IMG/VR virus record: IMGVR_UViG_3300021399_000004
Coordinates: 105,339-169,338 of that record
From: a virus
Direction: 5' to 3' (one strand)
DNA: 64,000 nucleotides
Shown here: in pieces, positions 971 to 15,901 of the stretch
Position numbering within the stretch: the first letter of the stretch is position 1
Layout: the number at the start of each line of letters is the position of its first letter
Program-made: the position numbers and the translations under genes
Notes under the pieces: model-generated
Databases searched by the model: none
The model's input: the letters and a program-made list of their open reading frames with translations, nothing else
Told to the model about the DNA's origin: nothing

Positions 971-990
971 TTAGATGTTCAAACATCTAA
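971..990. repeat. 20-bp palindrome copy 1 (centre CA), shared by divergent promoters
   Basis: ttagatgttCAaacatctaa. 30 bp from -35 935..940 (-10 912..917, gene 1..860). 29 bp from -35 1020..1025 (-10 1042..1047, gene 1074..1583). Confidence 0.95.
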
Positions 991-1019
991 AAATGTTGAA
1001 GGAAAATTAAAAATATGGA

Positions 1020-1047
1020 TTGACTTTTTTATAAAGTCGAGTATAAT
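1020..1047 (+). promoter_or_regulatory. Promoter of the inverted cassette 1074..1583
   Basis: TTGACT (1020..1025), 16-bp spacer, TATAAT (1042..1047). Confidence 0.7.
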
Positions 1048-1073
1048 ATAATTGTACCAAGAGAAAGGAGCCA

Positions 1074-1583
1074 ATGAAGATGACTGATTACAAGCAGGAA
1101 GCCCGTAAATTTTTGAAAGAATTTTCTCCTGCGTTAGAAAACTATAATGGTTCACTGACGTATATGTGGCAGAAAGCCAAAGAATATAATAAAGGTAGAA
1201 CGAAAATAAATCAAATTGTTTGTAGAAATGGTGCTACTCGGATAGCTCTTATCGGCAAGGATTTTGTTGTAAAGATGGATTATGATGCTGATGATGATAT
1301 AAAAATGTTTGGTGGATGCGGGAAAGAATACGCTTTGTATAGAAAATGTGTTCGTGAAAATTCGCCTTATTTGCATTGTTTATTGGAAATTGCTAAAATT
1401 AAAGTAGGCAATCATTTCTATTACATCATGCCAAAAGCAAACTATTGCGGGCATACTTCCTTCTTAAATTTCAATTGTGAAGAAAGAAACTGGCTGTATA
1501 GTCATGTAAATGATTTACATAATGGAAATATTGGAAAATATAACGGTAAACCTGTGGTTATTGATTATGCCTGTCAGTTCTGA
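1074..1583 (+). CDS. Small protein-kinase-like phosphotransferase (putative)
   Basis: Only plus-strand gene of the left arm. SD AAAGGAG, TGA stop inside the terminator stem. Motifs: FVVKMD (beta3 Lys), EYALY (alphaC Glu), NDLHNGNIG (D-x-H-x-x-N catalytic loop), VVIDYA (metal-binding Asp). Call rests on motif recall only. Confidence 0.45.
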   Translation: MKMTDYKQEARKFLKEFSPALENYNGSLTYMWQKAKEYNKGRTKINQIVCRNGATRIALIGKDFVVKMDYDADDDIKMFGGCGKEYALYRKCVRENSPYLHCLLEIAKIKVGNHFYYIMPKANYCGHTSFLNFNCEERNWLYSHVNDLHNGNIGKYNGKPVVIDYACQF

Positions 1584-1588
1584 CAGGC
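1569..1588 (+). terminator. Intrinsic terminator of 1074..1583 (stop codon inside the stem)
   Basis: GCCTGTCA-gttc-TGACAGGC followed by ATTTTCATT. Confidence 0.65.
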
Positions 1589-1606
1589 ATTTTCATTATT
1601 TGTAGA

Positions 1607-1626
1607 TTAGATGTTTGAACATCTAA
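1607..1626. repeat. Palindrome copy 2 (centre TG)
   Basis: Lies between the convergent terminators of 1074..1583 and 1670..2002. No promoter is adjacent. Confidence 0.95.
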
Positions 1627-1643
1627 CCTCTCTGGAAAAAAAG

Positions 1644-1665
1644 AAAAGCGGCCGAAGCCGCTTTA
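1644..1665 (-). terminator. Intrinsic terminator of 1670..2002
   Basis: AAAAGCGGC-CGAA-GCCGCTTT; symmetric A/T flanks. Confidence 0.7.
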
Positions 1666-1669
1666 AGTG

Positions 1670-2002
1670 TTAGCCCTTCACCGTGTAGGTGTTGGGCTTG
1701 CCCTCGGTCTTGACAAGCTCGTCAGCCCACAGGCGGGTAATGGCGTACTGCACATTGCCACGGGTTACGCCGGTGGGCAGGTCATTCTGGCAAGCCTCGT
1801 AAACCTCGCTAACCGTCAGCGACACAGGAGTGGACTTGAACACGTTGAACACAATGTCCTTCATAGTCGTATACATGTCGGACTTGGCAGCCTTGACCTC
1901 GGCGCCACGGTTCAGCTCCTTGTCAACGGCGGCAAGCAGCTCGGTCTGATCGGGCATGGTAGACAGGATGTTGCGGATAGCAGTCAGAGAAGCCTTCGTC
2001 AT
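1670..2002 (-). CDS. Small early protein, family A (winged-helix-like C-terminal half)
   Basis: 110 aa, TAA stop. Paralogs at 5385..5723 and 8294..8638 share SE(V/I/L)YE..LP.G.T(R/K)G.V.YA.TR.W.DE. Two tandem promoters upstream. Confidence 0.7.
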   Translation of the reverse strand: MTKASLTAIRNILSTMPDQTELLAAVDKELNRGAEVKAAKSDMYTTMKDIVFNVFKSTPVSLTVSEVYEACQNDLPTGVTRGNVQYAITRLWADELVKTEGKPNTYTVKG

Positions 2003-2024
2003 ATGGATACCCTTTCTGGTTTGT

Positions 2025-2040
2025 GGGGTTTTCCTTCCCC
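2025..2040 (-). promoter_or_regulatory. Conserved leader hairpin 2, example (mRNA: GGGG-AAGGAAAA-CCCC)
   Basis: The same loop with different complementary stems occurs at 887..900, 2688..2700, 3627..3642, 4831..4846, 5246..5261, 5748..5761, 6896..6909, 7968..7981 and 8661..8676. Confidence 0.7.
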
Positions 2041-2052
2041 TGTTTTGTTGTT

Positions 2053-2064
2053 GTCCCTTGGGAC
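2053..2064 (-). promoter_or_regulatory. Conserved 5'-proximal leader hairpin 1, example (GTCCC-NN-GGGAC)
   Basis: Lies just downstream of the -10. Variants GTTCC..GGAAC (12661..12674, 13272..13285) and GTACC..GGTAC (11239..11253) keep complementarity. Confidence 0.65.
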
Positions 2065-2070
2065 ACTCTT

Positions 2071-2099
2071 ATTGTACCACACTTTAGTGTGCTTGTCAA
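2071..2099 (-). promoter_or_regulatory. Proximal promoter of 1670..2002
   Basis: TTGACA (2094..2099), 17-bp spacer, TGG-TACAAT (2071..2076). Confidence 0.75.
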
Positions 2100-2228
2100 G
2101 GGAGTTTGGAAACTTTTTTTGAGTTTCAACTACGACCTTGCAACGGTGGTGTGGCTTGGAGTTCCCTCCTGACAGTATTTATTATAGCAAAGGTTTAAGA
2201 AAAAGTCAAGCAGACTCTTTTTAATGCT

Positions 2229-2248
2229 TTAGATGTTTAAACATCTAA
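2229..2248. repeat. Palindrome copy 3 (centre TA), gap 19
   Basis: -35 2204..2209, -10 2181..2186. Distal promoter of 1670..2002. Confidence 0.95.
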
Positions 2249-2255
2249 AATGGCT

Positions 2256-2275
2256 GGGAGGGCGTTAGCCCTCCC
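2256..2275 (-). terminator. Terminator hairpin with TAA in its loop (2265..2477)
   Basis: GGGAGGGC-gTTA-GCCCTCCC. The last codons G-E-G form the stem. Confidence 0.65.
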
Positions 2276-2477
2276 CAATAATAGCCTCAACCAGAGGATG
2301 CCACGTCTTGATATGAGTCACAATCTGTACATCATCAGGATCAATGAAGCCACCGCAACAGCCGCAGATAATGGTCTGAATTTCATCGCCCTTGTAGATA
2401 GCGATACCCGCAATCTCCTGCCGCAATTCGGCAGGCACAGTCAAGTCGTAGAAGGTAATTTGTTCAGTGTACATCAT
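2265..2477 (-). CDS. Hypothetical small early protein (70 aa)
   Basis: Start lies 2 nt after the stop of 2480..2665, so the two form an operon. The TAA sits in the loop of hairpin 2256..2275. Confidence 0.65.
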   Translation of the reverse strand: MMYTEQITFYDLTVPAELRQEIAGIAIYKGDEIQTIICGCCGGFIDPDDVQIVTHIKTWHPLVEAIIGEG

Positions 2478-2479
2478 AA

Positions 2480-2665
2480 TTAGTCATCCTCCTCTACAAT
2501 GTAGTCCATCTCAATCAGGTGCTTGGTCGTGGCGGAGTAGGTCAGGAACTGAATGGTGTTGCCCATGTACAGGCAGATCTGCCAGTAGTCGTCACGCTTG
2601 ACCTCAATGAAGTTGGTCTTGGGGTTATTCAGAAGGGCATGAATCATGTTTTCGTATTCGGTCAT
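2480..2665 (-). CDS. Hypothetical small early protein (61 aa)
   Basis: SD AAAGGAGA then ATG. First gene of the cassette served by palindrome copy 4. TAA stop. Confidence 0.65.
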   Translation of the reverse strand: MTEYENMIHALLNNPKTNFIEVKRDDYWQICLYMGNTIQFLTYSATTKHLIEMDYIVEEDD

Positions 2666-2770
2666 CGTGAATCTCCTTTGGTTTGGTGGGTGTCCTTCCC
2701 TTGGTACGGTCTTATTATACCATAGCGGGATTTTATTGTCAAGAGATATATGCAGGAAAGTTAAAGAATA

Positions 2771-2790
2771 TTAGATGTTTGAACATCTAA
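2771..2790. repeat. Palindrome copy 4 (centre TG), gap 28
   Basis: -35 2737..2742, -10 2714..2719. Operon 2480..2665 plus 2265..2477. Confidence 0.95.
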
Positions 2791-2805
2791 TATAAATAAG
2801 GCCCA

Positions 2806-3096
2806 TTAGGGCCGTAGGTAATCAACAATGATTTCACCAGTATCAGCAGCGATGACTTGCACTCTCGTGCAGTCTTTATCTCCAAGATAAATAGCAACAG
2901 AATGAAGTGCAGATACAATATCAGTAGTAAATTCTTCATAGTATTCTTCGCCATAATAGCGAAGGAGACAATAGCCTGGAAGGTAACTCAGAGTAATAGT
3001 TTCAGTTGGTTTACAATTGTGAATGAAGTCCATGGCAGATTCACGGGTCGCAAACTCTCGGTCAAGTCCTGTCGTCTCATTTGTAATCTTCCACAT
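2806..3096 (-). CDS. Hypothetical small early protein (96 aa)
   Basis: SD GAAGGAGG then ATG. TAA sits in the loop of GGCCC-ATTA-GGGCC. The C-terminus DTGEIIVDY resembles GTGEIVAIF of 12171..12362. Confidence 0.65.
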   Translation of the reverse strand: MWKITNETTGLDREFATRESAMDFIHNCKPTETITLSYLPGYCLLRYYGEEYYEEFTTDIVSALHSVAIYLGDKDCTRVQVIAADTGEIIVDYLRP

Positions 3097-3170
3097 ATTT
3101 GTGTACCTCCTTCGTACAATGGTATTATACTATGAGATTAGGCGTGTGTCAAGAGGAGTTCTAATGGCTA

Positions 3171-3190
3171 TTAGATGTTTGAACATCTAA
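3171..3190. repeat. Palindrome copy 5 (centre TG), gap 18
   Basis: -35 3147..3152, -10 3124..3129. Gene 2806..3096. Confidence 0.95.
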
Positions 3191-3209
3191 TCCAGAAAGG
3201 CGGTGGCGG

Positions 3210-3602
3210 TTACACCGCCACCTCACGGTCGAGATACTGGTTAGGGTCGTCCTTCTCTTCTTCTTCCTGAGCCTTGGCGGCCTTGGCGGCCCGGCGGGCC
3301 TTGTCAGCGGCAATCTTAGCCGCCTTTTCCTTAGCCTTGGCTTCGGCCTTCGCCGCCTTGGCGGCCTTTTCCTCTTTCCACGCTTCAGCCTCCACAAAGG
3401 GGTCAAACACACCGCCCTTGGCAGTCTCGGTGAAGGACTTGGACTTAACCGTGATCTCAGTCCAAACCTCCTGACCGTCTACCTCCTGCAACACGGCGAA
3501 CGAGGCATCACCAAACTGCACAGCGGCAAGCTGTTCCAGAACGTCATGCAGGGCAGTCAGGGTCATGGCACGAGCGGCGGACTTGGCTTCCAGAATCTTC
3601 AT
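3210..3602 (-). CDS. Early protein family B: globular N-domain plus Lys/Ala-rich (histone H1-like) tail
   Basis: ATG at 3602; the track's TTG start at 3608 is less likely. SD AGAAAGGG. Tail AAKAAKAEAKAKEKAAKIAADKARRAAKAAKA. Paralog 7582..7947. DNA binding is an inference. Confidence 0.65.
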   Translation of the reverse strand: MKILEAKSAARAMTLTALHDVLEQLAAVQFGDASFAVLQEVDGQEVWTEITVKSKSFTETAKGGVFDPFVEAEAWKEEKAAKAAKAEAKAKEKAAKIAADKARRAAKAAKAQEEEEKDDPNQYLDREVAV

Positions 3603-3703
3603 AGGCAATTCCCTTTCTGGTTTTTTGGGGTTTTCCTTCCCCTTGGTACATGCTTATTATACAGGATTCTTTGGTAAAAGTCAAGAATTTTTAGGGAGAT
3701 AAA

Positions 3704-3723
3704 TTAGATGTTTGAACATCTAA
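3704..3723. repeat. Palindrome copy 6 (centre TG), gap 19
   Basis: -35 3679..3684, -10 3656..3661. Gene 3210..3602. Confidence 0.95.
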
Positions 3724-3755
3724 TTTAGGTTTTAGGTAAAAGCCCTTGCGGGCTT

Positions 3756-4808
3756 TTACTTAATAAATTCTTCAAGATGATTTTGATATTCAATAGCAAA
3801 TTGCTTCTGGGCCGGGTCGGTCACGTCAGCATTGAAACGAGTAAGATACTGGATAATTTTGCCTTTGTGCGAAACTTCACATGTAATGCAGGGGGTATCT
3901 GGGGCAGAAATTTTCCGTACAGTAACAATGTAAGTTTCGTTATGAAATACTTTCGACATATAGAGATCTTCTACACAATTCTCTTGCGCCTTTGCTTCAA
4001 TATGAAATGCTTCTTTGTTAAGAATTGGGCGCGCTTCATAATCCCGATATTGGAAGTAGAGGAATGGCTTGTCATTATTTTTAGTTAAAATAGAATCATA
4101 ATTTTCTTGCTTATAAATTTTATAAAGATAGACCATTTTAGCATAAGCGGTTAAGAAATTATGCGGCACTTTCACTTCATTATACATCATTATACTCATT
4201 TTATAATAGTTAATAATCAATTCTTCAAATTTAGGCTGGGCATAATATACATATGGATTATCATCAATATTAGCAGAGAATGAATCAACATTTTCAAGAA
4301 TCATTCGTTGTAGTATGGAGATAACGTAAGTACCGGGGATTTCTTGATGATGATATGCGATAGAACGAGCAATCTTTTTTGCCCAGTCGGGAAATCTTTC
4401 ATGAGCAGGATAATTTTTAGAAAAGTTATAGGCGGCGACGGCGTTATCGCTATACATGCCATTATAGTTATCTTTGATAAAGCTAACAAGCTCTTTAGTC
4501 AGACGGGAAGAGGAATCTAAAGCACTAAAACTTTCCGGAACTAATCCAACGGATATAAGCTGTTCAAGCCTGTTTGCTCTTGCTCGGGTGTACTTTTCTT
4601 TATAAGTTGATTCGTTCATTCTATACATATAGATAACACGAGCAAAAATATTATTACATGTAAGATTATTATAAGTAAATACTTGTGGAATGGTCTTAAC
4701 AGGTTTATTAGACTTGCCGATGAAATTTCCAGTAGTGATATGCCACTTGCCCATCATCTCATTCGCATGATATGCTACAATGTAATCTTTCTCTTTGATG
4801 AACTCCAT
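3756..4808 (-). CDS. PcfJ-like domain protein (putative)
   Basis: 350 aa and AT-richer than its neighbours. The C-terminal region NCVEDLYMSKVFHNETYIVTVRK...CITCEV.HKGKIIQ resembles my recollection of the PcfJ family. Own cassette. Confidence 0.5.
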   Translation of the reverse strand: MEFIKEKDYIVAYHANEMMGKWHITTGNFIGKSNKPVKTIPQVFTYNNLTCNNIFARVIYMYRMNESTYKEKYTRARANRLEQLISVGLVPESFSALDSSSRLTKELVSFIKDNYNGMYSDNAVAAYNFSKNYPAHERFPDWAKKIARSIAYHHQEIPGTYVISILQRMILENVDSFSANIDDNPYVYYAQPKFEELIINYYKMSIMMYNEVKVPHNFLTAYAKMVYLYKIYKQENYDSILTKNNDKPFLYFQYRDYEARPILNKEAFHIEAKAQENCVEDLYMSKVFHNETYIVTVRKISAPDTPCITCEVSHKGKIIQYLTRFNADVTDPAQKQFAIEYQNHLEEFIK

Positions 4809-4903
4809 GCCGGCAACCTTTCTGGTTTGAGGTGTTTTCCTTCACCTTTCGAGAGTAGTATACCACCGATTCAAAGGATTGTCAATAAGGAAAAATTCAT
4901 AGA

Positions 4904-4923
4904 TTAGATGTTCAAACATCTAA
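4904..4923. repeat. Palindrome copy 7 (centre CA), gap 18
   Basis: -35 4880..4885, -10 4857..4862. Gene 3756..4808. Confidence 0.95.
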
Positions 4924-4927
4924 CCTT

Positions 4928-4947
4928 AAAAGCCCGTTAGGGCTTTT
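4928..4947 (-). terminator. Terminator hairpin with TAA in its loop (4937..5224)
   Basis: AAAAGCCC-gTTA-GGGCTTTT. Confidence 0.7.
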
Positions 4948-5224
4948 TCGAGAAGTTCTTTTTTACATATGCCCGCAAGGTTTTTTCTGCCTGTTCGGGC
5001 GTGCGGCGACGAGTTGTGACAACATTCCAACAATCAAATGCCCCTGCTTCTTCACCGTATTCATATATATCAGCGGCGCGCCAGGTATCATCGCCCCACC
5101 ATTCTGTCATGGCATTTGCGTCAAACAAAGCGTAAGCTCCTTCCCACCCACAGTCCCAAGTGTCTACTACGGAAAGACAAACATACTGATGATTAGGAGT
5201 GCGGATTACTTCATGAAGATACAT
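4937..5224 (-). CDS. Hypothetical small early protein (95 aa, Trp-rich)
   Basis: ATG at 5224 preceded by the conserved leader and SD. The longer track ORF to 5338 would run through the promoter. TAA sits in the loop of AAAAGCCC-GTTA-GGGCTTTT. Confidence 0.65.
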   Translation of the reverse strand: MYLHEVIRTPNHQYVCLSVVDTWDCGWEGAYALFDANAMTEWWGDDTWRAADIYEYGEEAGAFDCWNVVTTRRRTPEQAEKTLRAYVKKNFSKKP

Positions 5225-5322
5225 TTTGAATCCTTTCTGGTTTTCGGGATTTTCCTTTCCCTTTGGAACGCTTTTAGTATAGCATAAGATGATTTGGAAA
5301 TCAAGTCTAATTTTTGATGAGT

Positions 5323-5342
5323 TTAGATGTTTTAACATCTAA
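5323..5342. repeat. Palindrome copy 8 (centre TT), gap 18
   Basis: -35 5299..5304 (TTGATT), -10 5276..5281. Gene 4937..5224. Confidence 0.95.
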
Positions 5343-5384
5343 TTAGAAGGCAAAGAAAAAGCGCCCGTAGGCGCTTTGCAGGGA

Positions 5385-5723
5385 TTACGCCCTGCGGTAG
5401 CAGTTGACGCCCTTGACGCCCTCAACCTTGACGATGGCGTCACCCCACAGGCGGGTCAGACCATAGCTGACCTTGCCCTTGGTAAAGCCCTCGGGGAGCT
5501 TGTCAGCGCACTCGTCATAGATCTCAGCGGCAGTCAGCGGGGCAGTGGTCATCGCAAGGACTTCCAGCACAGCGGCCTTCGCTTCGTCATAGGCGGACTT
5601 GCGCTCAGCCTTGGCGGCTTCGCCACGGTGCAGTTCGGCGTTGAGTTCGTCCATGATGGCGGTATCAGAGTAGCCAGTCTCGGTCAGGTAAGCAACAACA
5701 GCGGACAGAGTAGCCTTCTTCAT
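5385..5723 (-). CDS. Small early protein, family A
   Basis: 112 aa, paralog of 1670..2002 and 8294..8638. Tandem promoters upstream, and the distal one shares a 27-nt identical segment with the 1670..2002 upstream region. Confidence 0.7.
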   Translation of the reverse strand: MKKATLSAVVAYLTETGYSDTAIMDELNAELHRGEAAKAERKSAYDEAKAAVLEVLAMTTAPLTAAEIYDECADKLPEGFTKGKVSYGLTRLWGDAIVKVEGVKGVNCYRRA

Positions 5724-5954: not shown

Positions 5955-5974
5955 TTAGATGTTTAAACATCTAA
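5955..5974. repeat. Palindrome copy 9 (centre TA), gap 8
   Basis: -35 5941..5946, -10 5918..5923. Distal promoter of 5385..5723. Confidence 0.95.
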
Positions 5975-6503: not shown

Positions 6504-6523
6504 TTAGATGTTAAAACATCTAT
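6504..6523. repeat. Palindrome copy 10 (centre AA, 19/20 match), gap 17
   Basis: ttagatgttaaaacatctaT. -35 6481..6486, -10 6458..6463. Operon 6231..6419 plus 5989..6180. Confidence 0.9.
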
Positions 6524-6959: not shown

Positions 6960-6979
6960 TTAGATGTTCAAACATCTAA
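6960..6979. repeat. Palindrome copy 11 (centre CA), gap 7
   Basis: -35 6947..6952, -10 6924..6929. Gene 6565..6873. Confidence 0.95.
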
Positions 6980-7528: not shown

Positions 7529-7548
7529 TTAGATGTTTGAACATCTAA
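7529..7548. repeat. Palindrome copy 12 (centre TG), gap 19
   Basis: -35 7504..7509, -10 7481..7486. Gene 6992..7429. Confidence 0.95.
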
Positions 7549-7581: not shown

Positions 7582-7947
7582 TTACTGAGTATTTTCCTTC
7601 AACTTCTGCTTGGCAGCACGCTTGGCATTGTCGGCCGCAATTTTCGCCGCTTTCTTGGCGTCGGCTGCCGCCTTCTTCGCCTTCTTCTCTTCCATGTCAA
7701 GGCGGTACTCTTCGGCGGCGGCGTAGGCATCGTACTCAATGTAACCGCCCTGTCCGTCACGAGTACCACGGGGGATAGATACCTTGACAAGTGCAAACTT
7801 CTCATTCTGTGCGCTGTCAAGTACGGGGATGGCGATTTCGTTTCCGCTAACGTCAATAGCGTCTACGTCAAAGTGGGCGGCAAGCGCCTGGCGGATCACG
7901 TCAAGAACCTCATTGCGGATGGGGGTGTTCAGTTCTTCCTTGCTCAT
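7582..7947 (-). CDS. Early protein family B with Lys/Ala-rich tail
   Basis: Paralog of 3210..3602. Tail EKKAKKAAADAKKAAKIAADNAKRAAKQK. Its -35 (8016..8021) overlaps the stop of 8018..8167, and no palindrome sits in front. Confidence 0.65.
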   Translation of the reverse strand: MSKEELNTPIRNEVLDVIRQALAAHFDVDAIDVSGNEIAIPVLDSAQNEKFALVKVSIPRGTRDGQGGYIEYDAYAAAEEYRLDMEEKKAKKAAADAKKAAKIAADNAKRAAKQKLKENTQ

Positions 7948-8231: not shown

Positions 8232-8251
8232 TTAGATGTTTAAACATCTAA
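8232..8251. repeat. Palindrome copy 13 (centre TA), gap 7
   Basis: -35 8219..8224, -10 8196..8201. Gene 8018..8167. Confidence 0.95.
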
Positions 8252-8293: not shown

Positions 8294-8638
8294 TTACGCC
8301 TTGCGGCTATACAGGGTGGCGCCCTTGCTACCCTTGTCCGCAATCAGTTCGTCTACCCAATAGCGGGTCATGGCGTACTGCATCTTGCCCTTGGTGAAAC
8401 CATCGGGCAGCTGGTCAGCAATGCTCTCATACAGCTCACTGACCGTTACGGGGCCAACAGCATCCGCAAGACCATTCATCACGACATCATGCGCCTCAGC
8501 GTACAGCTCGCGATTCGCCTGCGCCTTGACGGCGTTCTTGTTCAGCTCAGCCTCCAGCTCAGCCTTGATTTCATCGAGGTTGGTCACAGTCTCGCCGTTG
8601 AGGTAGGAAACGAGGGACATCATGGTGGACTTCTTCAT
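8294..8638 (-). CDS. Small early protein, family A
   Basis: ATG at 8638 after the conserved leader. The track ORF to 8743 would include the promoter. Paralog of 1670..2002 and 5385..5723. Confidence 0.7.
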   Translation of the reverse strand: MKKSTMMSLVSYLNGETVTNLDEIKAELEAELNKNAVKAQANRELYAEAHDVVMNGLADAVGPVTVSELYESIADQLPDGFTKGKMQYAMTRYWVDELIADKGSKGATLYSRKA

Positions 8639-8758: not shown

Positions 8759-8778
8759 TTAGATGTTTAAACATCTAA
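8759..8778. repeat. Palindrome copy 14 (centre TA), gap 19
   Basis: -35 8734..8739, -10 8711..8716. Gene 8294..8638. Confidence 0.95.
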
Positions 8779-9654: not shown

Positions 9655-9674
9655 TTAGATGTTTAAACATCTAA
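9655..9674. repeat. Palindrome copy 15 (centre TA), gap 16
   Basis: -35 9633..9638, -10 9609..9614 (18-bp spacer). Gene 8803..9564. Confidence 0.95.
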
Positions 9675-10050: not shown

Positions 10051-10070
10051 TTAGATGTTCAAACATCTAA
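10051..10070. repeat. Palindrome copy 16 (centre CA), gap 29
   Basis: -35 10016..10021, -10 9993..9998. Gene 9698..9895. Confidence 0.95.
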
Positions 10071-10441: not shown

Positions 10442-10461
10442 TTTAGATGTTTGAACATCTA
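10442..10461. repeat. Palindrome copy 17 (centre TG), gap 18
   Basis: -35 10418..10423, -10 10395..10400. Gene 10112..10348. Confidence 0.95.
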
Positions 10462-10490
10462 ACCTAAAGGAAACAAAAAGGGGCGGAGGT

Positions 10491-10882: not shown

Positions 10883-10902
10883 TTAGATGTTCAAACATCT
10901 AA
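10883..10902. repeat. Palindrome copy 18 (centre CA), gap 17
   Basis: -35 10860..10865, -10 10837..10842. Gene 10491..10796. Confidence 0.95.
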
Positions 10903-10932: not shown

Positions 10933-11211
10933 TCACCCCTCCACCTTCTGAATCTCACCGGTAAAAATGTTGTAACGCTGACCGGTAGTGTACAGCTCTT
11001 TCGCCAGCTGATAGGTCAGACCACGTTCCTGCATGAACCACCGAATGTGGTTAATAGTAGTGCGGCTATACAGCCCGTTGCAATACAGCCACCCGTTAGA
11101 ATCAATCTCAATTACAGTGGTGGTGTAGCTGACCAGCTTTCCGGAAAAGCCGTCATTGTTCACGTACTCACGCGCCTGCGCATACTCGTGACCGTTCAGT
11201 TTCTTCATCAT
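10933..11211 (-). CDS. Hypothetical early protein (92 aa)
   Basis: SD GGAGGA then ATGATG. TGA sits in the loop of GGTGGAGGG-TCA-CCCCTCCACC. Confidence 0.6.
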   Translation of the reverse strand: MMKKLNGHEYAQAREYVNNDGFSGKLVSYTTTVIEIDSNGWLYCNGLYSRTTINHIRWFMQERGLTYQLAKELYTTGQRYNIFTGEIQKVEG

Positions 11212-11307
11212 TGTTGTGATCCTCCATTTTTTTATTCTGTACCTCTTTGGTACGGTTATATATTAGCATATACGGTTAAAAAAGTCAATAGGATTTTTCG
11301 CCTGATT

Positions 11308-11327
11308 TTAGATGTTCAAACATCTAA
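11308..11327. repeat. Palindrome copy 19 (centre CA), gap 19
   Basis: -35 11283..11288, -10 11260..11265. Gene 10933..11211. Confidence 0.95.
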
Positions 11328-11368
11328 AAGAGTTTAATAAAGAGTAGGCGCAAAGCCTACTCTTTTTA

Positions 11369-11533
11369 TTACTTAATGGCGCAATTGGTATGGCTGTAAT
11401 GCAACCGCCAATTGAGATATTCGCAGCTGCAAGGGTCAAGAATGTCATCATACCCGCACTCTTCGGCGTCTTCCCACAGTTCGTCATACGTTACCAAGTT
11501 GCCCATCTCTTTGTTCATGTAGTAGAATTCCAT
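11369..11533 (-). CDS. Hypothetical small early protein (54 aa)
   Basis: Below the ORF-track size cut-off and found by hand. SD GGAGGT then ATG at 11533, TAA at 11369. Complete cassette with promoter, palindrome copy 20 and terminator 11341..11367. Confidence 0.5.
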   Translation of the reverse strand: MEFYYMNKEMGNLVTYDELWEDAEECGYDDILDPCSCEYLNWRLHYSHTNCAIK

Positions 11534-11611
11534 TGTAGTGACCTCCATTTTTTATTATCCCCTCGGGACGATTATAGTTTACCATACATATGATATATTG
11601 TCAAGATGGAA

Positions 11612-11631
11612 TTTAGATGTTTGAACATCTA
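11612..11631. repeat. Palindrome copy 20 (centre TG), gap 7
   Basis: -35 11599..11604, -10 11576..11581. Gene 11369..11533. Confidence 0.95.
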
Positions 11632-11723
11632 ATAATGTTTTGGGTTTGTGGCGGAGGTATTTTATACTAAAATGTTTAAGTATATTAAAAATGAAATAGG
11701 AGGGAATACCCTCCTATTTCATC

Positions 11724-12026
11724 TTAGCAGTAGGCAAGGCTCATGTTCGCCCACTTGAGAACCGAAATCTGATTGTGCTTGCGGCCGATCTCCATCGCCT
11801 GCCGCTTAGTCTTGACGCGGAAGCTGTGATCGATGTAGTAAACGCCGTCGCTGTACCAGATCCCGCAGCTGCCGTTCATCTTCTTTACAGCTTCCGCAGC
11901 TTCCGCAGCCGTCTTGCATTCAACCCCGTGATCGGCCACCTGCCAACCCGTCTTGTAGGTGATGACCTTGCCGTTCTTCAGGGTGAGACCATCGTTGTTC
12001 TTGAGCGCCTTGAGCATTTCCAACAT
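11724..12026 (-). CDS. Hypothetical early protein (100 aa)
   Basis: SD-like AAGAGGATG then ATG; own cassette; TAA stop. Confidence 0.6.
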   Translation of the reverse strand: MLEMLKALKNNDGLTLKNGKVITYKTGWQVADHGVECKTAAEAAEAVKKMNGSCGIWYSDGVYYIDHSFRVKTKRQAMEIGRKHNQISVLKWANMSLAYC

Positions 12027-12118
12027 TGTTGCATCCTCTTTTCTTTTTATTCTGTCCCTTCGGACAAGTATATATTACCATATAGCAAGCAAAAAGTCAA
12101 GGGCATTTTTGAGAGGAA

Positions 12119-12138
12119 TTAGATGTTTAAACATCTAA
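12119..12138. repeat. Palindrome copy 21 (centre TA), gap 18
   Basis: -35 12095..12100, -10 12072..12077. Gene 11724..12026. Confidence 0.95.
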
Positions 12139-12170
12139 CATAAGGAAGGCCCTAACAGGGCCGTAGATAA

Positions 12171-12362
12171 TTAACAATTCCACTGGATATTGCCAGGCTC
12201 GAAAATCGCTACGATCTCGCCGGTGCCCTCACGCATGACGTCGGTAGCAAGGTTGCACTCATGAAACATGCGGAAGGCCATGATCTTAGCGGCCCATTCG
12301 CTATTGAACTTGATACCATAGGTGAAGGGCTGCCGGTTGATGTAGTAAGTCACAGTGTACAT
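12171..12362 (-). CDS. Hypothetical small early protein (63 aa)
   Basis: ATG at 12362 lies 8 nt after GGAGG. The track's TTG start at 12368 is less likely. TAA stop. Confidence 0.6.
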   Translation of the reverse strand: MYTVTYYINRQPFTYGIKFNSEWAAKIMAFRMFHECNLATDVMREGTGEIVAIFEPGNIQWNC

Positions 12363-12439
12363 AATCAATGCCTCCTTTTCTTGGAACGATTATAGTATAT
12401 CATACTTGTTTTTGTTTGTCAATAGGAAAATAAAAAAGA

Positions 12440-12459
12440 TTAGATGTTGAAACATCTAA
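12440..12459. repeat. Palindrome copy 22 (centre GA), gap 17
   Basis: -35 12417..12422, -10 12394..12399. Gene 12171..12362. Confidence 0.95.
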
Positions 12460-12486
12460 CCCTGGAGAGAAAAAAGGTAAACCGCC

Positions 12487-12642
12487 TTAGCGGTCTACCT
12501 CAACAATGACGTATTTCCAAGTCCGGCCCAGTTGCTGCCCACGTTCCACATAATGCTTGCCAATTTTCTCAGCTTCTTCGCGGGTAGAGAACGTATCGGC
12601 CATGTTGCACGTGTACTTGCCAATGATGTAAAGCTCGAACAT
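12487..12642 (-). CDS. Small early protein, family D (51 aa)
   Basis: Hand-found. SD GAAAGGAAGG. Paralog of 13089..13253 (LYI.GKY...F.T.EEAE..GK.YV.RG..LG..W.Y). TAA stop. Confidence 0.55.
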   Translation of the reverse strand: MFELYIIGKYTCNMADTFSTREEAEKIGKHYVERGQQLGRTWKYVIVEVDR

Positions 12643-12727
12643 GTTGATTCCTTCCTTTCTGTTCCCTTTGGAACGATTACATTATAGCATACTTGTGAAG
12701 AAAAATCAAGTGGTTTGCACTATTTCA

Positions 12728-12747
12728 TTAGATGTTGAAACATCTAA
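12728..12747. repeat. Palindrome copy 23 (centre GA), gap 18
   Basis: -35 12704..12709 (TTGATT), -10 12681..12686. Gene 12487..12642. Confidence 0.95.
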
Positions 12748-12772
12748 CCTTGGTGGAGGATGGGCGGGCCGA

Positions 12773-12934
12773 TTAGCCCGCCATTTCCTTAACCCACGCC
12801 GCGGCGTCCTTCCAATTATCAAAGCTAAGCCGTCCAAAATCATAGTTGAATACTACCCATGTGCTATGCGAATCAAGGTCATCATAGTAATAGCCCATCT
12901 TTTCCATCCGTGCAATGATAGTCCGCTTTGCCAT
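12773..12934 (-). CDS. Hypothetical small early protein (53 aa)
   Basis: Hand-found. SD AAAGGAGAA then ATG at 12934. TAA sits in the loop of GGGCGGGC/GCCCGCC. Confidence 0.5.
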   Translation of the reverse strand: MAKRTIIARMEKMGYYYDDLDSHSTWVVFNYDFGRLSFDNWKDAAAWVKEMAG

Positions 12935-13040
12935 CGTACATTCTCCTTTCTTTATCCCCTTGGGACAATATCATTATATAGGATTTTAGTATGTTTGTCA
13001 ATAGGCATTGTAAAAAAATTAATAGAAAATAAAATTAAGA

Positions 13041-13060
13041 TTAGATGTTTAAACATCTAA
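13041..13060. repeat. Palindrome copy 24 (centre TA), gap 39
   Basis: -35 12996..13001, -10 12973..12978. Gene 12773..12934. Confidence 0.95.
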
Positions 13061-13088
13061 CCTTCAATTGTTAAAGTGTCTCCCGCGA

Positions 13089-13253
13089 TTAAGCGGGAGC
13101 GGAAAGAACGAAGTAATCCCAATCATGGCCCAGCTCGGTGCCCCGGTTAACGTACTGCTTGCCGGTGTTTTCAGCTTCTTCATTGGTGGAGAACTTACCA
13201 ATCAAGTAGAAGCTATACTTGCTAACGATGTACAATCTGTAAATGGTGTCCAT
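13089..13253 (-). CDS. Small early protein, family D (54 aa)
   Basis: Hand-found. SD GGAAGGAAAA then ATG at 13253. TAA sits in the loop of CTCCCGC/GCGGGAG. Confidence 0.55.
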   Translation of the reverse strand: MDTIYRLYIVSKYSFYLIGKFSTNEEAENTGKQYVNRGTELGHDWDYFVLSAPA

Positions 13254-13338
13254 ATGTTTTCCTTCCTTTCCGTTCCTCTTGGAACGTCTATATTATAGCA
13301 TACTCGCAATTACTTGTCAACGTGTTTATGAAAATGAA

Positions 13339-13358
13339 TTAGATGTTCAAACATCTAA
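13339..13358. repeat. Palindrome copy 25 (centre CA), gap 18
   Basis: -35 13315..13320, -10 13292..13297. Gene 13089..13253. Confidence 0.95.
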
Positions 13359-13369
13359 CTCTTGGAGGC

Positions 13370-13513
13370 TCACGCCTCCTCTTCTACCCGTTCAAAGTTA
13401 TCACGGCAGAACGATTCATAGGAATCATACCACTTAGAGAAATATTTATACTGCTCATACATTTCTTCTTCCGTAATGTATCTTTCCATTTCCCAATCAT
13501 ACCATTTAGCCAT
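13370..13513 (-). CDS. Hypothetical small early protein (47 aa, acidic)
   Basis: Hand-found. SD AGGAGGAAAA then ATG at 13513. TGA sits in the loop of GGAGGC-TCAC-GCCTCC. Confidence 0.5.
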   Translation of the reverse strand: MAKWYDWEMERYITEEEMYEQYKYFSKWYDSYESFCRDNFERVEEEA

Positions 13514-13602
13514 TTTCTTTTCCTCCTTTTTTGTTCGTTCCTTTGGAACAGTTATATTATATCATGGTAGGATAGTCCTGTCAACAGAGTGAGAAAAATA
13601 AA

Positions 13603-13622
13603 TTAGATGTTCAAACATCTAA
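13603..13622. repeat. Palindrome copy 26 (centre CA), gap 18
   Basis: -35 13579..13584, -10 13556..13561. Gene 13370..13513. Confidence 0.95.
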
Positions 13623-13638
13623 CAACGTTGGTGGGCCG

Positions 13639-13764
13639 TTAGGCCCACCGCATCAATTCATCAAATTCCTCAAAAGTCATGGGGTCGTCCTCATCAGTAT
13701 TCGCCTGATACTCCCAGAACAGATAGATCTGCTCCGCGTCGGTCAGTTCATCCCAATTAATCAT
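13639..13764 (-). CDS. Hypothetical small early protein (41 aa, acidic)
   Basis: Hand-found. SD GAAGGAGAA then ATG at 13764. TAA sits in the loop of GGTGGGCC/GGCCCACC. Confidence 0.45.
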   Translation of the reverse strand: MINWDELTDAEQIYLFWEYQANTDEDDPMTFEEFDELMRWA

Positions 13765-13858
13765 TTTTGTTTTCTCCTTCGTTTCTTTATTTTGTCCCTC
13801 CGGACAAGTATAGTATACTGTATGTTCAATAAAAAGTCAACATGAATTTTTCAGAGGA

Positions 13859-13878
13859 TTAGATGTTTAAACATCTAA
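13859..13878. repeat. Palindrome copy 27 (centre TA), gap 18
   Basis: -35 13835..13840, -10 13812..13817. Gene 13639..13764. Confidence 0.95.
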
Positions 13879-13993
13879 CTTTTGAAAAAAACGATGATAA
13901 GTTTCTTTGCTATTTTTTTACCGATAAGTCATGCGGAAGAAATAGCAGAAAGTACTGCCTGATTTGATAGAAAAGTCATCACATTCAAATCTA

Positions 13994-14161
13994 TTAAATA
14001 ATTATTCTAGCTTGTCGGTGTCCAGCTGGCGCCCAGCTGGTGTCCAGCTGGCTGGCCCGTAGGGCGCGAGTTGCGCCGCGGCGAGCCTCAAAAAATTTAT
14101 AGGTAACTATGATAAACAGATCTTCTTGATTCTCTTTTTTAGGTGGTAGTTGGAGAGACAT
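13994..14161 (-). CDS. Doubtful 55-aa ORF in an otherwise complete cassette
   Basis: SD GGAGGGG then ATG at 14161, TAA at 13994. The product is low-complexity and the body contains three phased CCAGCTGG palindromes, so the cassette may be non-coding. Confidence 0.3.
   Translation of the reverse strand: MSLQLPPKKENQEDLFIIVTYKFFEARRGATRALRASQLDTSWAPAGHRQARIII
14022..14051. repeat. Three CCAGCTGG palindromes phased at 11 bp
   Basis: CCAGCTGG at 14022..14029, 14033..14040 and 14044..14051. Confidence 0.85.
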
Positions 14162-14226
14162 TGCCCCTCCAATGATGATAGTATACTACATTACACGTTC
14201 ATTGTCAATCATGATAGCGTGGATAA

Positions 14227-14246
14227 TTAGATGTTCAAACATCTAA
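14227..14246. repeat. Palindrome copy 28 (centre CA), gap 18
   Basis: -35 14203..14208, -10 14180..14185. Cassette 13994..14161. Confidence 0.95.
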
Positions 14247-14264
14247 CTACCATGGGCATCCGGA

Positions 14265-14284
14265 CATCTAACTACTGTTAGATG
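14265..14284. repeat. Everted arrangement of the palindrome half-sites
   Basis: CATCTAAC-tact-GTTAGATG, 18 bp from palindrome copy 28. Confidence 0.8.
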
Positions 14285-14315
14285 CGAAAAAAGGGGGGGC
14301 TTGCGCCCCTCCTTT

Positions 14316-14627
14316 TTACTTCATTGTTTTGAACCAGTAGTTTTCATTGGTGTTCCAGTAGTGCAGGCGGCACAGTCGGCTGTTCCAGCTCTTAACAATA
14401 GCGTCCGGCGGGCAATCCGTCAAGTGGCGGCTCAGCCCTTCACCGCAGGCAATCTCAACCTTGAGATAGAACCCTTCGGCGGTCTTACCCTCCCGCGTGA
14501 TCTTTACCATGGGAGTGGCGCCGCGCCCGCCCTTCAAGTAGTAGTGGCGCGCGGTCTTTTCCAGCAGGCGAACCATGGTCAGCAGGTTGAAGTAGTCGGG
14601 AGCGAAGACGGCGATCAGAATCATCAT
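14316..14627 (-). CDS. Early protein family E (103 aa)
   Basis: ATGATG at 14627 after GGAGGTG; the track ORF to 14690 is an over-extension. The C-terminus HYWNTNENYWFKTMK matches HAWNTNDDYWYETKAE of 18406..18717. Confidence 0.65.
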   Translation of the reverse strand: MMILIAVFAPDYFNLLTMVRLLEKTARHYYLKGGRGATPMVKITREGKTAEGFYLKVEIACGEGLSRHLTDCPPDAIVKSWNSRLCRLHYWNTNENYWFKTMK

Positions 14628-14731
14628 GATGGACACCTCCAAATTTTTTTCTGTTCCCCCTTGGAACAATTGTATTATAGCATACATCATTCATCCTGTC
14701 AACCCCTATTTTACATCTAAAAATGCATTAG

Positions 14732-14751
14732 TTAGATGTTGAAACATCTAA
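14732..14751. repeat. Palindrome copy 29 (centre GA), gap 29
   Basis: -35 14697..14702, -10 14674..14679. Gene 14316..14627. An extra half-site ACATCTAA lies at 14713..14720 inside the gap. Confidence 0.95.
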
Positions 14752-15090
14752 TTACTGTTTAAGGATTTAACTAATATTTAAACATCTAACTAATATTTAA
14801 ACATTTAAGAATAAAATTCATCGCTGGAAGAGTTGATTAAAAACTGTAAAATAAAGTCAAGCGCGCAAAAATTATAATAGTTAAGTTCGTCAAATAAGGT
14901 CTTAATTTCACTTATTATGGCACAGATTTTAAAATAGAATGCGATGGCTACTGGTAGATAGGTGTAATAAAAAGATTTCCTTGATAATATATTTTTCTAA
15001 CTGTGGGTGCTATCTTGGAAATGATATTATATTATAGTTTACAATTATTGTTAATTGAGTTTTGGGAAAATTAAATATGTTAAGATTAGA

Positions 15091-15110
15091 TTAGATGTCT
15101 AAACATCTAA
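15091..15110. repeat. Palindrome copy 30 (imperfect)
   Basis: ttagatgtCtaaacatctaa. The neighbouring promoter-like sequence is degenerate. Confidence 0.85.
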
Positions 15111-15389
15111 CATGAAATAGTTAAATGTTGTAAAATTTTATATTAGTTGAGGGGGAAATGAATGATATTTAAAATTAATAAAATATTATATAGATATGGG
15201 AATTGATTATTTGAAAATTTTTATTCCAAATAAAATAGCATTGAAAATGAAATATGCCCAGCTCGCATATAATTATAAAAATAATATTTTTTCTTCGGTC
15301 GATGCAAGCAGTTGGCGATAACAAAATATAATAATAAATGATAATAATAATTATTATACCACATTTTGGGATAAAAGTCAAGAGACTAA

Positions 15390-15409
15390 TTAGATGTTAA
15401 AACATCTAA
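15390..15409. repeat. Palindrome copy 31 (centre AA), gap 8, orphan promoter
   Basis: -35 15376..15381, -10 15353..15358 (TGGTATAAT). No SD or ORF downstream. Confidence 0.95.
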
Positions 15410-15625
15410 CTTGAAAATGAAATTGTAGGATTTTAAATTAGGAATTTTTATAATTTTATTTGAATAATAATTTAAAATAAAATTATGTTATTTTGCCAGC
15501 TCGCATTATTATGTTTATAGGAAAACATTCTTCGTTAATAATATTAAGTATCTGATATGAAAAGAAAATAAAATTAAAGATATTATTTATTATACCACGT
15601 TTCAGGAAAAAAGTCAAGTCTTAAA

Positions 15626-15645
15626 TTAGATGTTTAAACATCTAA
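15626..15645. repeat. Palindrome copy 32 (centre TA), gap 8, orphan promoter
   Basis: -35 15612..15617, -10 15589..15594. No SD or ORF downstream. Confidence 0.95.
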
Positions 15646-15881
15646 CTTGGAAATGAAATAAGACTGTTATGGGAGAAAATTTTTTATATATTCAACTTAT
15701 ATATTTTGTCTATTTAAAAATAAAATAATAATGTAATTAAAATAATACGAGCTTCAGCTTGCATATCATTTCGGGTTTTACTCTTGCTTTCGTGGATCAA
15801 TGATAACATTTGAAAACTAAATTGAAATCAAAAAGTAATTATCTATTATACCATATTTTGGGAAAAAAGTCAACCTTAAAA

Positions 15882-15901
15882 TTAGATGTTCAAACATCTA
15901 A
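15882..15901. repeat. Palindrome copy 33 (centre CA), gap 8, orphan promoter
   Basis: -35 15868..15873, -10 15845..15850. No SD or ORF downstream. Confidence 0.95.

Follow-up and report, generated by a model that had tools for sequence, protein, structure and literature searches.

The early region of an uncultured gut phage carries a 20-bp palindrome, TTAGATGTT-NN-AACATCTAA, that recurs once per small transcription unit at helically quantized distances from a near-consensus promoter. The phage is represented by IMG/VR record IMGVR_UViG_3300021399_000004, and the window analyzed here is a 64,000-nucleotide stretch of that record (positions 105,339 to 169,338; one strand, 5' to 3'), numbered from its first letter. 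The arrangement supports the view that the palindrome is the recognition site of a putative dimeric DNA-binding protein coupled to the promoter by helical phase. Our favored reading is that it is the operator of a dimeric regulator at the adjacent promoters, with simultaneous repression of the early genes as the likeliest outcome; this reading is tentative, and we give it somewhat less than an even chance. An original prediction, made by a model from the sequence and its open reading frames (ORFs), had proposed a single regulator that gates, insulates, or shuts off the whole early gene set at once, and that interpretation is partly supported.

The window was searched with TTAGATGTTNNAACATCTAA, allowing up to two mismatches. 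The search returned 33 copies between positions 971 and 15901, whereas 0.02 are expected in shuffled sequence. Thirty-one are perfect palindromes, and the copies at 6504 and 15091 each carry a single mismatch; these counts and places reproduce exactly those given in the original prediction. On the source contig the array extends past the window start by five further palindromes, so that it comprises at least 38 copies within ~19 kb. Approximately 80 kb (about 62%) of the phage's 129-kb contig, an ENA metagenome scaffold (ERZ28612961 scaffold_147), was read, and the palindromes are restricted to those ~19 kb. The remaining 48-kb late region of the window contains none. A contig from a different sample overlaps the window and extends 10 kb beyond its end, into a replication module (Pol III alpha, NrdD, dUTPase); 16 kb of it likewise gave no copy with up to three mismatches. 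Two other samples contain this region at 100% identity and are hence uninformative about strain-level variation. The central dinucleotide had been described as freely varying, but CA/TG (17 copies) and TA (10) dominate over GA (3) and AA/TT (3), and the center is mostly a flexible pyrimidine-purine step. Eleven isolated half-sites, ACATCTAA, occur outside the palindromes between 14264 and 17789, 10 of them on one strand. They occupy the array border and the adjacent 21% GC spacer; there are none between 18 and 64 kb of the window, and no auxiliary half-sites were found in promoters or leaders within the array proper.

The array genes and promoters are on the minus strand, which corrects the original prediction. 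Each unit begins with a GC-rich hairpin and T-run, followed after 5-12 nucleotides by the palindrome, the gap, a TTGACA-17-TGnTATAAT promoter, a leader, and one or two small ORFs. The terminator hairpins are different in every unit. In a generic scan the top promoter matches (10-12 of 12 positions, most with the TG extension) are nearly all on the minus strand and adjoin a palindrome, and 50 terminator-like sites were found compared to 16 expected.

The gap between the palindrome edge and the -35 hexamer falls into discrete classes, and the gap values were confirmed by an independent promoter scan. The coordinates that follow are those of the palindrome and, in parentheses, the central dinucleotide and the minus-strand promoter. 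Seven copies have gaps of 7-8 bp: 7 bp at 6960-6979 (CA, 6952-6924) and 8232-8251 (TA, 8224-8196), and 8 bp at 5955-5974 (TA, 5946-5918), 11613-11632 (TG, 11604-11576), 15390-15409 (AA, 15381-15353), 15626-15645 (TA, 15617-15589), and 15882-15901 (CA, 15873-15845). The copies at 15390 and 15626 head AT-rich units with no ORF, and the copy at 15882 is the final one at this side of the array. Nineteen copies have gaps of 17-19 bp. The gap is 17 bp at 6504-6523 (AA, 6486-6458; the mismatch is a T as last base), 9655-9674 (TA, 9637-9609), 10883-10902 (CA, 10865-10837), and 12440-12459 (GA, 12422-12394). The modal gap of 18 bp is found at 3171-3190 (TG, 3152-3124), 4904-4923 (CA, 4885-4857), 5323-5342 (TT, 5304-5276, with hexamers TTGATT/TATACT), 12119-12138 (TA, 12100-12072), 12728-12747 (GA, 12709-12681), 13339-13358 (CA, 13320-13292), 13603-13622 (CA, 13584-13556), 13859-13878 (TA, 13840-13812), and 14227-14246 (CA, 14208-14180). 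It is 19 bp at 2229-2248 (TA, 2209-2181), 3704-3723 (TG, 3684-3656), 7529-7548 (TG, 7509-7481), 8759-8778 (TA, 8739-8711), 10443-10462 (TG, 10423-10395), and 11308-11327 (CA, 11288-11260). Gaps of 28-30 bp belong to four minus-strand promoters, those of 2771-2790 (28 bp; TG, 2742-2714), 10051-10070 (29 bp; CA, 10021-9993), 14732-14751 (29 bp; GA, 14702-14674), and copy 1 at 971-990 (30 bp; CA, -35 at 940 to -10 at 912). Copy 1 also serves a plus-strand promoter (1020-1047) at a gap of 29 bp, and its predicted place between divergent promoters at 30 and 29 bp was thus confirmed. The palindrome at 13041-13060 (TA, 13001-12973) has a gap of 39 bp. The copy at 15091-15110, whose mismatch gives TTAGATGTC, is 36 bp from a weak promoter (15054-15026, TTAACA) and is the sole out-of-phase case. 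Copy 2 at 1607-1626 (TG) has no promoter and lies between convergent terminators (1567-1590 on the plus strand and 1664-1645 on the minus strand). The predicted classes of 7-8, 28-30, and 39 bp, with seven, five, and one promoters, therefore stand; the class given as 16-19 bp is 17-19 bp, and the outlier at 36 bp is added.

The recomputed gaps are clustered and not flat. The best period is 10.4-10.5 bp, in agreement with the predicted steps of ~10.5 bp, with a Rayleigh R of 0.88, a value not reached in any of 20,000 simulations with uniform gaps. Outside the modal class, the 13 remaining gaps lie a mean of 0.73 bp off the phase of 18, and again none of 20,000 simulations matched this. With transcription assumed to start 7 nucleotides after the -10 hexamer, the site centers are at about -53.5, -63.5, -74.5, and -84.5, within 1 bp of those predicted (-54, -64.5, -75.5, and -85.5). 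The spacers of the 17-19 bp class have a mean pairwise identity of 0.31 compared to 0.29 expected from composition. They share no sequence but have quantized lengths, which indicates that length is selected and not sequence. There is no helical phasing between neighboring palindromes, so the constraint is promoter-specific. A looping or filament model was rejected on the same grounds.

Several other features of the units were observed. A conserved 5' leader, GAAGGAAAAC-N3-8-AAACCAGAAAGG, is found on the minus strand at, for example, 2060-2003, 3640-3603, 4850-4809, 5265-5225, and 5765-5724. It has a covarying 4-bp stem (GGTG/CACC, GGGG/CCCC, GAG/CTC) around the loop AAGGAAAA, followed by the ribosome-binding site. 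The leader is conserved in at least 118 IMG/VR phage loci (L149-L266), often several times per locus, and has no Rfam match. Most -10 hexamers have a small hairpin just 3' of them, where the transcript is predicted to start (13286-13271, 12066-12053, and 13549-13537 on the minus strand, for example) whose stems covary (GTTCC-AAG-GGAAC, GTACC...GGTAC, GTCC-GAA-GGAC); it may be a 5' stabilizer or a recognition element for a protein or RNase. Two ORF-less stretches of ~80-110 nucleotides (2181-2100 and 5918-5805, minus strand) follow palindrome-linked promoters, start with AAATACTGTCAGGAGGGAA, and end in a hairpin with an A-rich loop. Each precedes a second, palindrome-less promoter (2099 and 5804) and then a gene of early protein family A, and could represent a small RNA or regulatory leader. 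On the minus strand at 14752-15881, four promoter units in a row are AT-rich (19-25% GC) and have no credible ORF; three are paralogous and have a common GCGAGCTG box.

The exact 20-bp motif was found only as singletons elsewhere in IMG/VR, JGI metagenomes, and 185,579 species genomes. The species genomes, which were scanned for the 20-bp form only, contained no array or multi-copy occurrence, and this argues against a common host regulon for that form. The only two-copy match, L013 (JAAUYK010173138.1), was rejected as an unrelated GC-rich contig. Its exact 20-bp copies at 524-543 and 637-656 lie in a 113-bp direct repeat between a small ORF and an integrase-like ORF and are probably an independent operator or partition-type site. 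The motif scan that accompanied the original prediction as a proposal was run on the ~80 kb read and on related phages, and it enlarged the array and led to a 19-bp family. A scan with the conserved leader identified 118 IMG/VR loci, mostly from rumen samples, that have the window's early genes in common, and many of these hold arrays of a 19-bp palindrome, TTAGRTGT-WWW-ACAYCTAA. A direct scan for this 19-bp form (TTAGRTGTWWWACAYCTAA) detected arrays in at least 45 IMG/VR contigs, the largest having 37 copies in a contig of 31 kb. The pooled set contains 791 unique 19-bp sites in 94 IMG/VR loci; 653 have a promoter on one side, 29 on both sides, and 109 (about 14%) on neither.

The 19-bp sites follow the same spacing rule. 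Most have a gap of 9 bp (492 sites; 62% of scored promoters), 8 bp (77), or 10 bp (30), and smaller groups have gaps of 17-21 (30), 28-31 (25), and 39-42 bp (10). A small group at 4 bp (17 sites) and scattered further values are not accounted for by the phase classes. The 9-bp gap holds no sequence information, and the T-run ends ~5 nucleotides ahead of the site. The canonical position in the family has the site center ~18.5 bp upstream of the -35, near -54, and the other positions are whole turns further out. The consensus, TTAGATGT-W-W-W-ACATCTAA, is invariant even where the search left positions free, and the invariance of the half-sites stated in the original prediction now extends to ~800 copies across at least 45 phage contigs. 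Where divergent promoters are paired in relatives, they have one common copy at canonical gaps, mostly 9/9 and 8/10; one palindrome can thus be used symmetrically by promoters on both sides. The window phage differs from its relatives in having a 2-nucleotide center where they have 1 nucleotide, which sets the half-site centers 12 bp apart instead of 11 bp, and in having most copies one turn further upstream. No near-identical relative of the array or the late region was found among GenBank phages. The motif search of GenBank phages gave one chance-level place per record and no arrays among the best 30 of 79 matches. The motif was not found in phAss-1, the closest named phage, and the phAss-1 paper (PMC10607447) mentions neither repeats nor promoters. 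The motif strings occur only in papers that are, by title and abstract, on unrelated subjects, which agrees with the statement in the original prediction that no description was known.

The composition of the half-sites bears on whether the palindrome acts as a protein site or as a folded nucleic acid. Position 5 of the half-site is A or G. In IMG/VR contig 3300028888_000066 (L309, L315), 12 copies are A-type, 10 are G-type, and 11 of the 33 are hybrids (TTAGATG...CACCTAA) whose arms cannot pair; the mixture indicates that position 5 is read as a purine. The hybrid arms, the isolated half-sites, and the invariant bases favor direct base recognition by a protein over a hairpin, and the predicted site for a dimeric DNA-binding protein in place of an RNA hairpin is supported on these sequence grounds. 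The palindrome can fold as a DNA hairpin, with a predicted energy of -6.3 kcal/mol and z of -5 to -7, and the terminator scan picks up four of its copies. These properties would suit a structural element, either the RNA hairpin of a terminator, a DNA cruciform, or an N4-type hairpin promoter for a virion RNA polymerase, and the last would be in keeping with the giant virion-region proteins of 5623 and 3392 amino acids that the phage encodes. The predicted energy falls to -2.5 kcal/mol in the hybrid sites, where pairing is broken, and there are no compensatory changes between the arms, whose bases are invariant. The palindrome lies after a separate GC-rich terminator and before the promoter, which makes it largely untranscribed, and a perfect palindrome used as a promoter would fire both ways. 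The giant ORF has no DFDGD motif and its start is coiled-coil and tape-measure-like, and an N4-like virion RNA polymerase was rejected for this reason. No Rfam family matched apart from spurious microRNA models on a TA/TG microsatellite. A structural element is scarcely credible as the explanation.

The DNA sequence was also searched for the protein that would bind the palindrome. Four families are present in all well-covered arrays and also in sister phages without the palindrome: family A, an exonuclease-like protein, a protein whose tail is rich in Lys and Ala, and an NT5C-like protein. In the window, Lys/Ala-tailed proteins are encoded at 3210-3602 and 7582-7947. The top "specific" families in phylogenetic profiling were rejected as antisense ORFs inside the exonuclease-like gene, and other profiled families (37, 39, and 7) were rejected because they are absent from the window. 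Nearly all of the early proteins scanned have no family. Three paralogs of family A are encoded on the minus strand of the window, at 1670-2002 (110 amino acids), 5385-5723 (112 amino acids), and 8294-8638 (114 amino acids), and the family has 162 homologues in a large protein collection; no functional name or Pfam domain appears among the 120 that were listed. The AlphaFold2 model of the 5385-5723 protein has a mean predicted local distance difference test score of 90.5. Its C-terminal half superposes in Foldseek on the winged-helix DNA-binding domains of Fur, Zur, and PerR, on histone H1, and on Z-alpha, with a probability of ~1.0, weak E-values (0.02-0.3), and a root mean square deviation of 2.1-2.6 Å over ~64 residues. 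A sequence search against the PDB gave nothing significant. The modeled winged-helix family A, whose fold is extended from this paralog to that at 1670-2002, is a candidate binder only, and this holds for all three paralogs. All 38 copies carry the 2-nucleotide center where relatives have 1 nucleotide, and such a concerted change from 19 to 20 bp suggests coevolution with a cognate, probably phage-encoded protein. A host protein would be just as compatible with a half-site that is nearly identical throughout the clade. We consider the binder more likely to be phage-encoded than host-encoded.

Sister loci that have the early genes and no palindrome show what else can occupy its place. In these loci the slot from -38 to -60 is filled by other conserved elements. 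In some the element is an A-tract/T-tract/A-tract consensus that is UP-element-like. In others TTAACA-N5-TTAAC directly adjoins the -35, often accompanied by an ACGT farther upstream. Examples of loci with one or the other element are L160, L172, L176, L197, L223, L264, L248, L212, L215, and L254. The UP-like tracts in the slot indicate that the palindrome sits where the polymerase alpha subunits normally touch upstream DNA. A UP element is an A/T tract at -38 to -60, without base-specific G/C positions, that is fixed beside the -35. The palindrome occupies the same slot; unlike a UP element, it has invariant G and C positions, is palindromic, and may sit one to three turns further upstream. 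Enterococcus phage EF1 (L365, MF001358) is a cultured, distant relative whose early region (~16195-25219) has the same modular promoter units and six copies of TTGTGAA-N4-TTCACAA, a sequence that matches the Rex repressor box of Firmicutes. These boxes raise the possibility of host redox sensing by the phage early region.

The anatomy of the units, their phasing and conservation, the spread across the family, and the signature of inversion are shown by the sequence; binding of a protein, contact with RNA polymerase, the sign of regulation, and the origin of the binder are inferred from it. These observations suggest a mechanism in which each subunit of a sequence-specific dimer would bind one 8-bp half-site. 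The palindrome would be built into a boundary module that separates ~40 small early units and consists of an intrinsic terminator, the palindrome, a sigma-A-type promoter, and the conserved leader. The site is tolerated only at about -54 or one, two, or three turns further out, which implies that the bound dimer would have to face RNA polymerase, and its location in or just upstream of the UP-element slot makes action through the alpha C-terminal domains most likely. The dimer would either block the UP-type contacts of the alpha C-terminal domain or hold the polymerase. In this way the whole early set of host-takeover or ORFan genes might be repressed at once, as a shut-off after the early phase or as silencing in a lysogen. 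Promoters without a palindrome would escape. One of these (19739-19768, plus strand), a match to the consensus at 12 of 12 positions, precedes the sigma-factor-like first gene of the TAG-recoded late block, a possible late-gene regulator; others are at 2099-2071, 5804-5776, and 8021-7993 on the minus strand.

The sign of regulation lies between repression and activation, and from the sequence we lean toward repression. Repression seems likeliest to us because the core promoters are near consensus and the copies are kept essentially perfect, as tight and simultaneous silencing would demand, and the palindrome-less promoters, being as strong as the linked ones, count in the same direction. The same site could have the opposite sign. 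A pre-existing dimer, supplied by the host or delivered with the virion, would recruit RNA polymerase through the alpha C-terminal domain and act as a protein-mediated UP element that lets the early promoters out-compete host promoters right after infection. We regard activation as unlikely, though it is the main rival reading. Occupancy of the slot that holds UP-like A/T tracts in the sisters speaks for it, as does a center near -54 plus integral turns, a hallmark of activators that touch the alpha C-terminal domain. A half-site that is near-identical in at least 45 diverged phages is expected if a constrained host protein reads it, and host-factor sites exist in related phages, namely the presumed Rex boxes in EF1 and the Spo0A boxes in phi29 (PMC2731898). 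The core promoters, on the other hand, already match at 10-12 of 12 positions with an extended -10, and the equally strong palindrome-less promoters show no sign of compensation. Loss of activation at single accessory genes should be tolerable, which is at odds with 31 perfect copies out of 33 and with a core that does not vary across ~800 sites. None of the 185,579 species genomes is enriched in the 20-bp form, and a phage-encoded partner more readily accounts for the concerted change from 19 to 20 bp. Repression has precedents: in phi29, Spo0A bound upstream of promoter A2b represses it by preventing the alpha C-terminal domain from reaching the UP element (PMC2731898), and the SPBRE sites of SPbeta are bound by the master repressor MrpR (PMC10516654).

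A number of results weigh against repression by one dedicated phage regulator. An upstream, face-dependent site is the classical geometry of an activator, and it replaces an activating UP element in the sisters. The DNA fetched contained no protein family specific to palindrome-bearing phages, and no integrase or repressor was seen in the ~80 kb read. An apparent covariation between the recognition helix of family A (THLW or NNLW) and the half-site (ATG or GTG) was rejected, since L357 and the hybrid sites break it; the A or G at position 5 is simply tolerated. The ~14% of relatives' sites that have no promoter mean that promoter control is not the sole reason for the copies, unless these sites are recent products of inversion.

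The distribution of promoters around copies 1 and 2 is informative on this last point. The sole plus-strand cassette (991-1606; promoter 1020-1047, gene 1074-1583, terminator 1567-1590) is delimited exactly by the palindromes at 971 and 1607. Two promoters adjoin the copy at 971 and no promoter adjoins that at 1607, the pattern that an inversion broken within the palindromes would leave. The relatives contain 29 two-promoter and 109 no-promoter sites, and the promoter-less examples that were read are flanked by convergent terminators. Gene order and content are mosaic and differ strongly between relatives, and the GC content of gene bodies varies from 19 to 55% from unit to unit. Any two copies are at once direct and inverted repeats, so the copies also serve as breakpoints for the inversion and shuffling of cassettes.

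Such shuffling raises the question of whether a binder is needed at all. A recombination module like the PeSL elements, in which a terminator stem-loop and a strong early promoter are repeated between ORFans of a hyperplastic region (PMC2839356, PMC4122927), would have no dedicated binder; homologous recombination would shuffle, invert, delete, and import the cassettes, each with its own promoter, gene, and terminator, and gene conversion would keep the repeats identical. The inverted cassette, the two-promoter and no-promoter sites, the mosaic cassettes, and the unit-to-unit differences in GC content are all in line with such a module. It gives no reason for a helically quantized distance to the -35. 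Conversion should homogenize the flanks, yet the 9- and 18-bp spacers and the flanks are unconserved next to an invariant palindrome. Homology of 19-20 bp is barely long enough to be useful, and neither the palindromic shape nor the clustered isolated half-sites are needed for homologous exchange. Taken alone, this explanation is improbable.

Recombination might instead be site-specific, with the palindrome an integron-like or hix-like site at which a phage recombinase cuts at the central dinucleotide. Serine-recombinase crossover sites of the hix, gix, and res type have an even length and a central 2-bp overlap. The 20-bp palindrome with its variable central dinucleotide resembles them, and cassette boundaries and inversions coincide with copies. 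The relatives' 19-bp site is unlike them, because its single central base does not allow a symmetric staggered cut of 2 bp. Among the early proteins scanned there was no recombinase or integrase domain, and promoter phasing is left unexplained, which makes a recombinase site very improbable. The two functions could be combined in a dual-purpose cassette junction, part of a phage system not recognized before, in which a single protein (perhaps a winged-helix early protein of small size, or a factor delivered with the virion) would switch ~40 promoters together by a strictly phase-dependent contact with RNA polymerase, and the junctions it marks would direct the capture, inversion, and exchange of cassettes. 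We consider such a combination distinctly unlikely. If true, the junction would be a promoter-carrying, integron-like platform for shuffling anti-host genes in TAG-recoded and related gut and rumen phages.

The array is followed by a late block that reads as sense only if TAG is a sense codon. The plus strand from 19768 to 62744 is then occupied by continuous ORFs, including 34051-50922 (5623 amino acids, 178 in-frame TAG codons) and 52566-62744 (3392 amino acids). The early array uses the standard code, and there are no transfer RNA genes in the window. By PHROG matches, the products include a sigma-factor-like protein (19768-21090), a portal protein, and proteins of the virion. For the major-capsid-like protein, identity is 36% with its counterpart in phAss-1, which has been described as a TAG-recoding gut phage (PMC10607447), and ~31% with those of Enterococcus phage EF1 and SPbeta-like phages.

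Three further regions flank the array. A non-coding spacer of 21% GC (15902-17800) between the array and the late block contains a (TATATG)n-type microsatellite at ~16800-17080, along with half-sites ACATCTAA dispersed on the same strand; the spacer may be an origin or a packaging region. Next to it is an insert of 58-65% GC (17800-19600, minus strand) whose composition is foreign to a 35% GC phage. It holds about four genes, with a GC-rich hairpin after each, and has a weak promoter near 19560; palindromes are absent. Beyond the window start, where the array ends on its other side, positions 18020-18230 of L146 contain non-coding short tandem repeats, GCTGGATAAGCTGG and TAGTGAAAATCG, beside the last palindrome and before a TAG-containing helicase-like gene.

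The array marks one control point for early, largely ORFan genes, probably with host-takeover or anti-defense functions, across a clade. The clade is large and made up of uncultured gut and rumen phages, and it includes a TAG-recoding phage, a case that bears on how recoded phages separate their early and late programs. The ~800 promoters are a natural spacing experiment that reports the distances permitted to an upstream regulator and a face-of-helix rule at Firmicutes-type sigma-A promoters. In metagenomic phage contigs the motif can serve to annotate early units, promoters, and the limits of cassettes. One element would join regulation with modular gene shuffling if exchange at the junctions is also promoted by the binder.

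The closest parallel in overall layout is the PeSL (promoter-early stem-loop) system (Arbiol et al. 2010, PMC2839356; Comeau et al. 2014, PMC4122927). There, a terminator stem-loop and a strong host-type early promoter are repeated between small, mostly ORFan genes in a hyperplastic region, the transcription units are self-contained, and the repeats coincide with rearrangement breakpoints. Here, a GC-rich hairpin and T-run likewise end 5-12 nucleotides before the palindrome and a strong sigma-70-type promoter, and the region is rich in familyless early proteins with a mosaic order and the 971/1607 inversion. PeSL elements consist of a terminator and promoter only, whereas the present junctions have in addition an invariant 19-20 bp palindrome at a helically quantized distance. 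PeSL copies recombine to give excised mini-circles. The phages that carry them are T4-like myoviruses; the window phage is unrelated to these, being SPbeta/phAss-like and TAG-recoded with Firmicutes-type sigma-A promoters.

The closest parallels in regulatory logic are repeated operators. SPBRE is a short element repeated in many early and lytic promoter regions of a large phage (Kohm et al. 2023, PMC10516654), where one protein encoded by the Bacillus prophage SPbeta, MrpR (YopR), reads it to hold the lytic program down. SPBRE is a 15-bp motif in ~10 copies, compared to a 20-bp palindrome in at least 38 copies, one per unit and with strict helical phasing. In its structural proteins the window phage is distantly related to SPbeta-like phages. 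No SPbeta record appeared among the best 30 of 79 matches in the GenBank phage search with the palindrome, and the early proteins scanned gave no integrase-family match, although no search was aimed at MrpR, a repressor with a tyrosine-recombinase fold. Stoperators of Cluster A mycobacteriophages, to which the original prediction compared the array, are also present as dozens of near-identical sites, about one per short intergenic region, and give one protein control on a genome scale. They are asymmetric, oriented 13-14 bp sites of a monomeric repressor that are distributed genome-wide and stop elongation (PMC9283540, PMC6550527). The sites described here are symmetric, 19-20 bp long, confined to the early array, placed after terminators, and located upstream of and phased to promoters, so the comparison holds as an analogy only.

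The closest parallels in geometry are upstream regulators that bind one face of the helix. CRP, a CRP/FNR protein, acts at class I promoters from a 22-bp site, TGTGA-N6-TCACA, centered at -61.5, -71.5, -82.5, or -92.5. The palindrome has in common with these sites the one-turn steps upstream of the -35 (10.4-10.5 bp, and 9, 19, 29, and 40 bp in relatives), a likeness that is positional evidence only. Its sequence, TTAGATGT-N3/4-ACATCTAA, is different, and its centers near -54, -64, -75, and -85 have a phase offset of ~7-8 bp, so that the predicted likeness to CAP class I sites stands for periodicity and fails for site sequence and for the position of the centers relative to -61.5/-71.5. CRP at class I promoters, p4 of phi29, and Spo0A at A2b (PMC2731898) all bind as dimers to an upstream site on one helical face that is movable by whole turns. 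Regulators of the CRP, p4, and Spo0A type act at a few such promoters, compared to ~40 in this one phage. Repeated operators such as stoperators and SPBRE, and promoter-terminator cassettes such as PeSL, are already known kinds of element. What is new here is their combination in one junction module, a strict helical quantization that extends over hundreds of promoters, and the distribution of the module in an uncultured gut and rumen clade.

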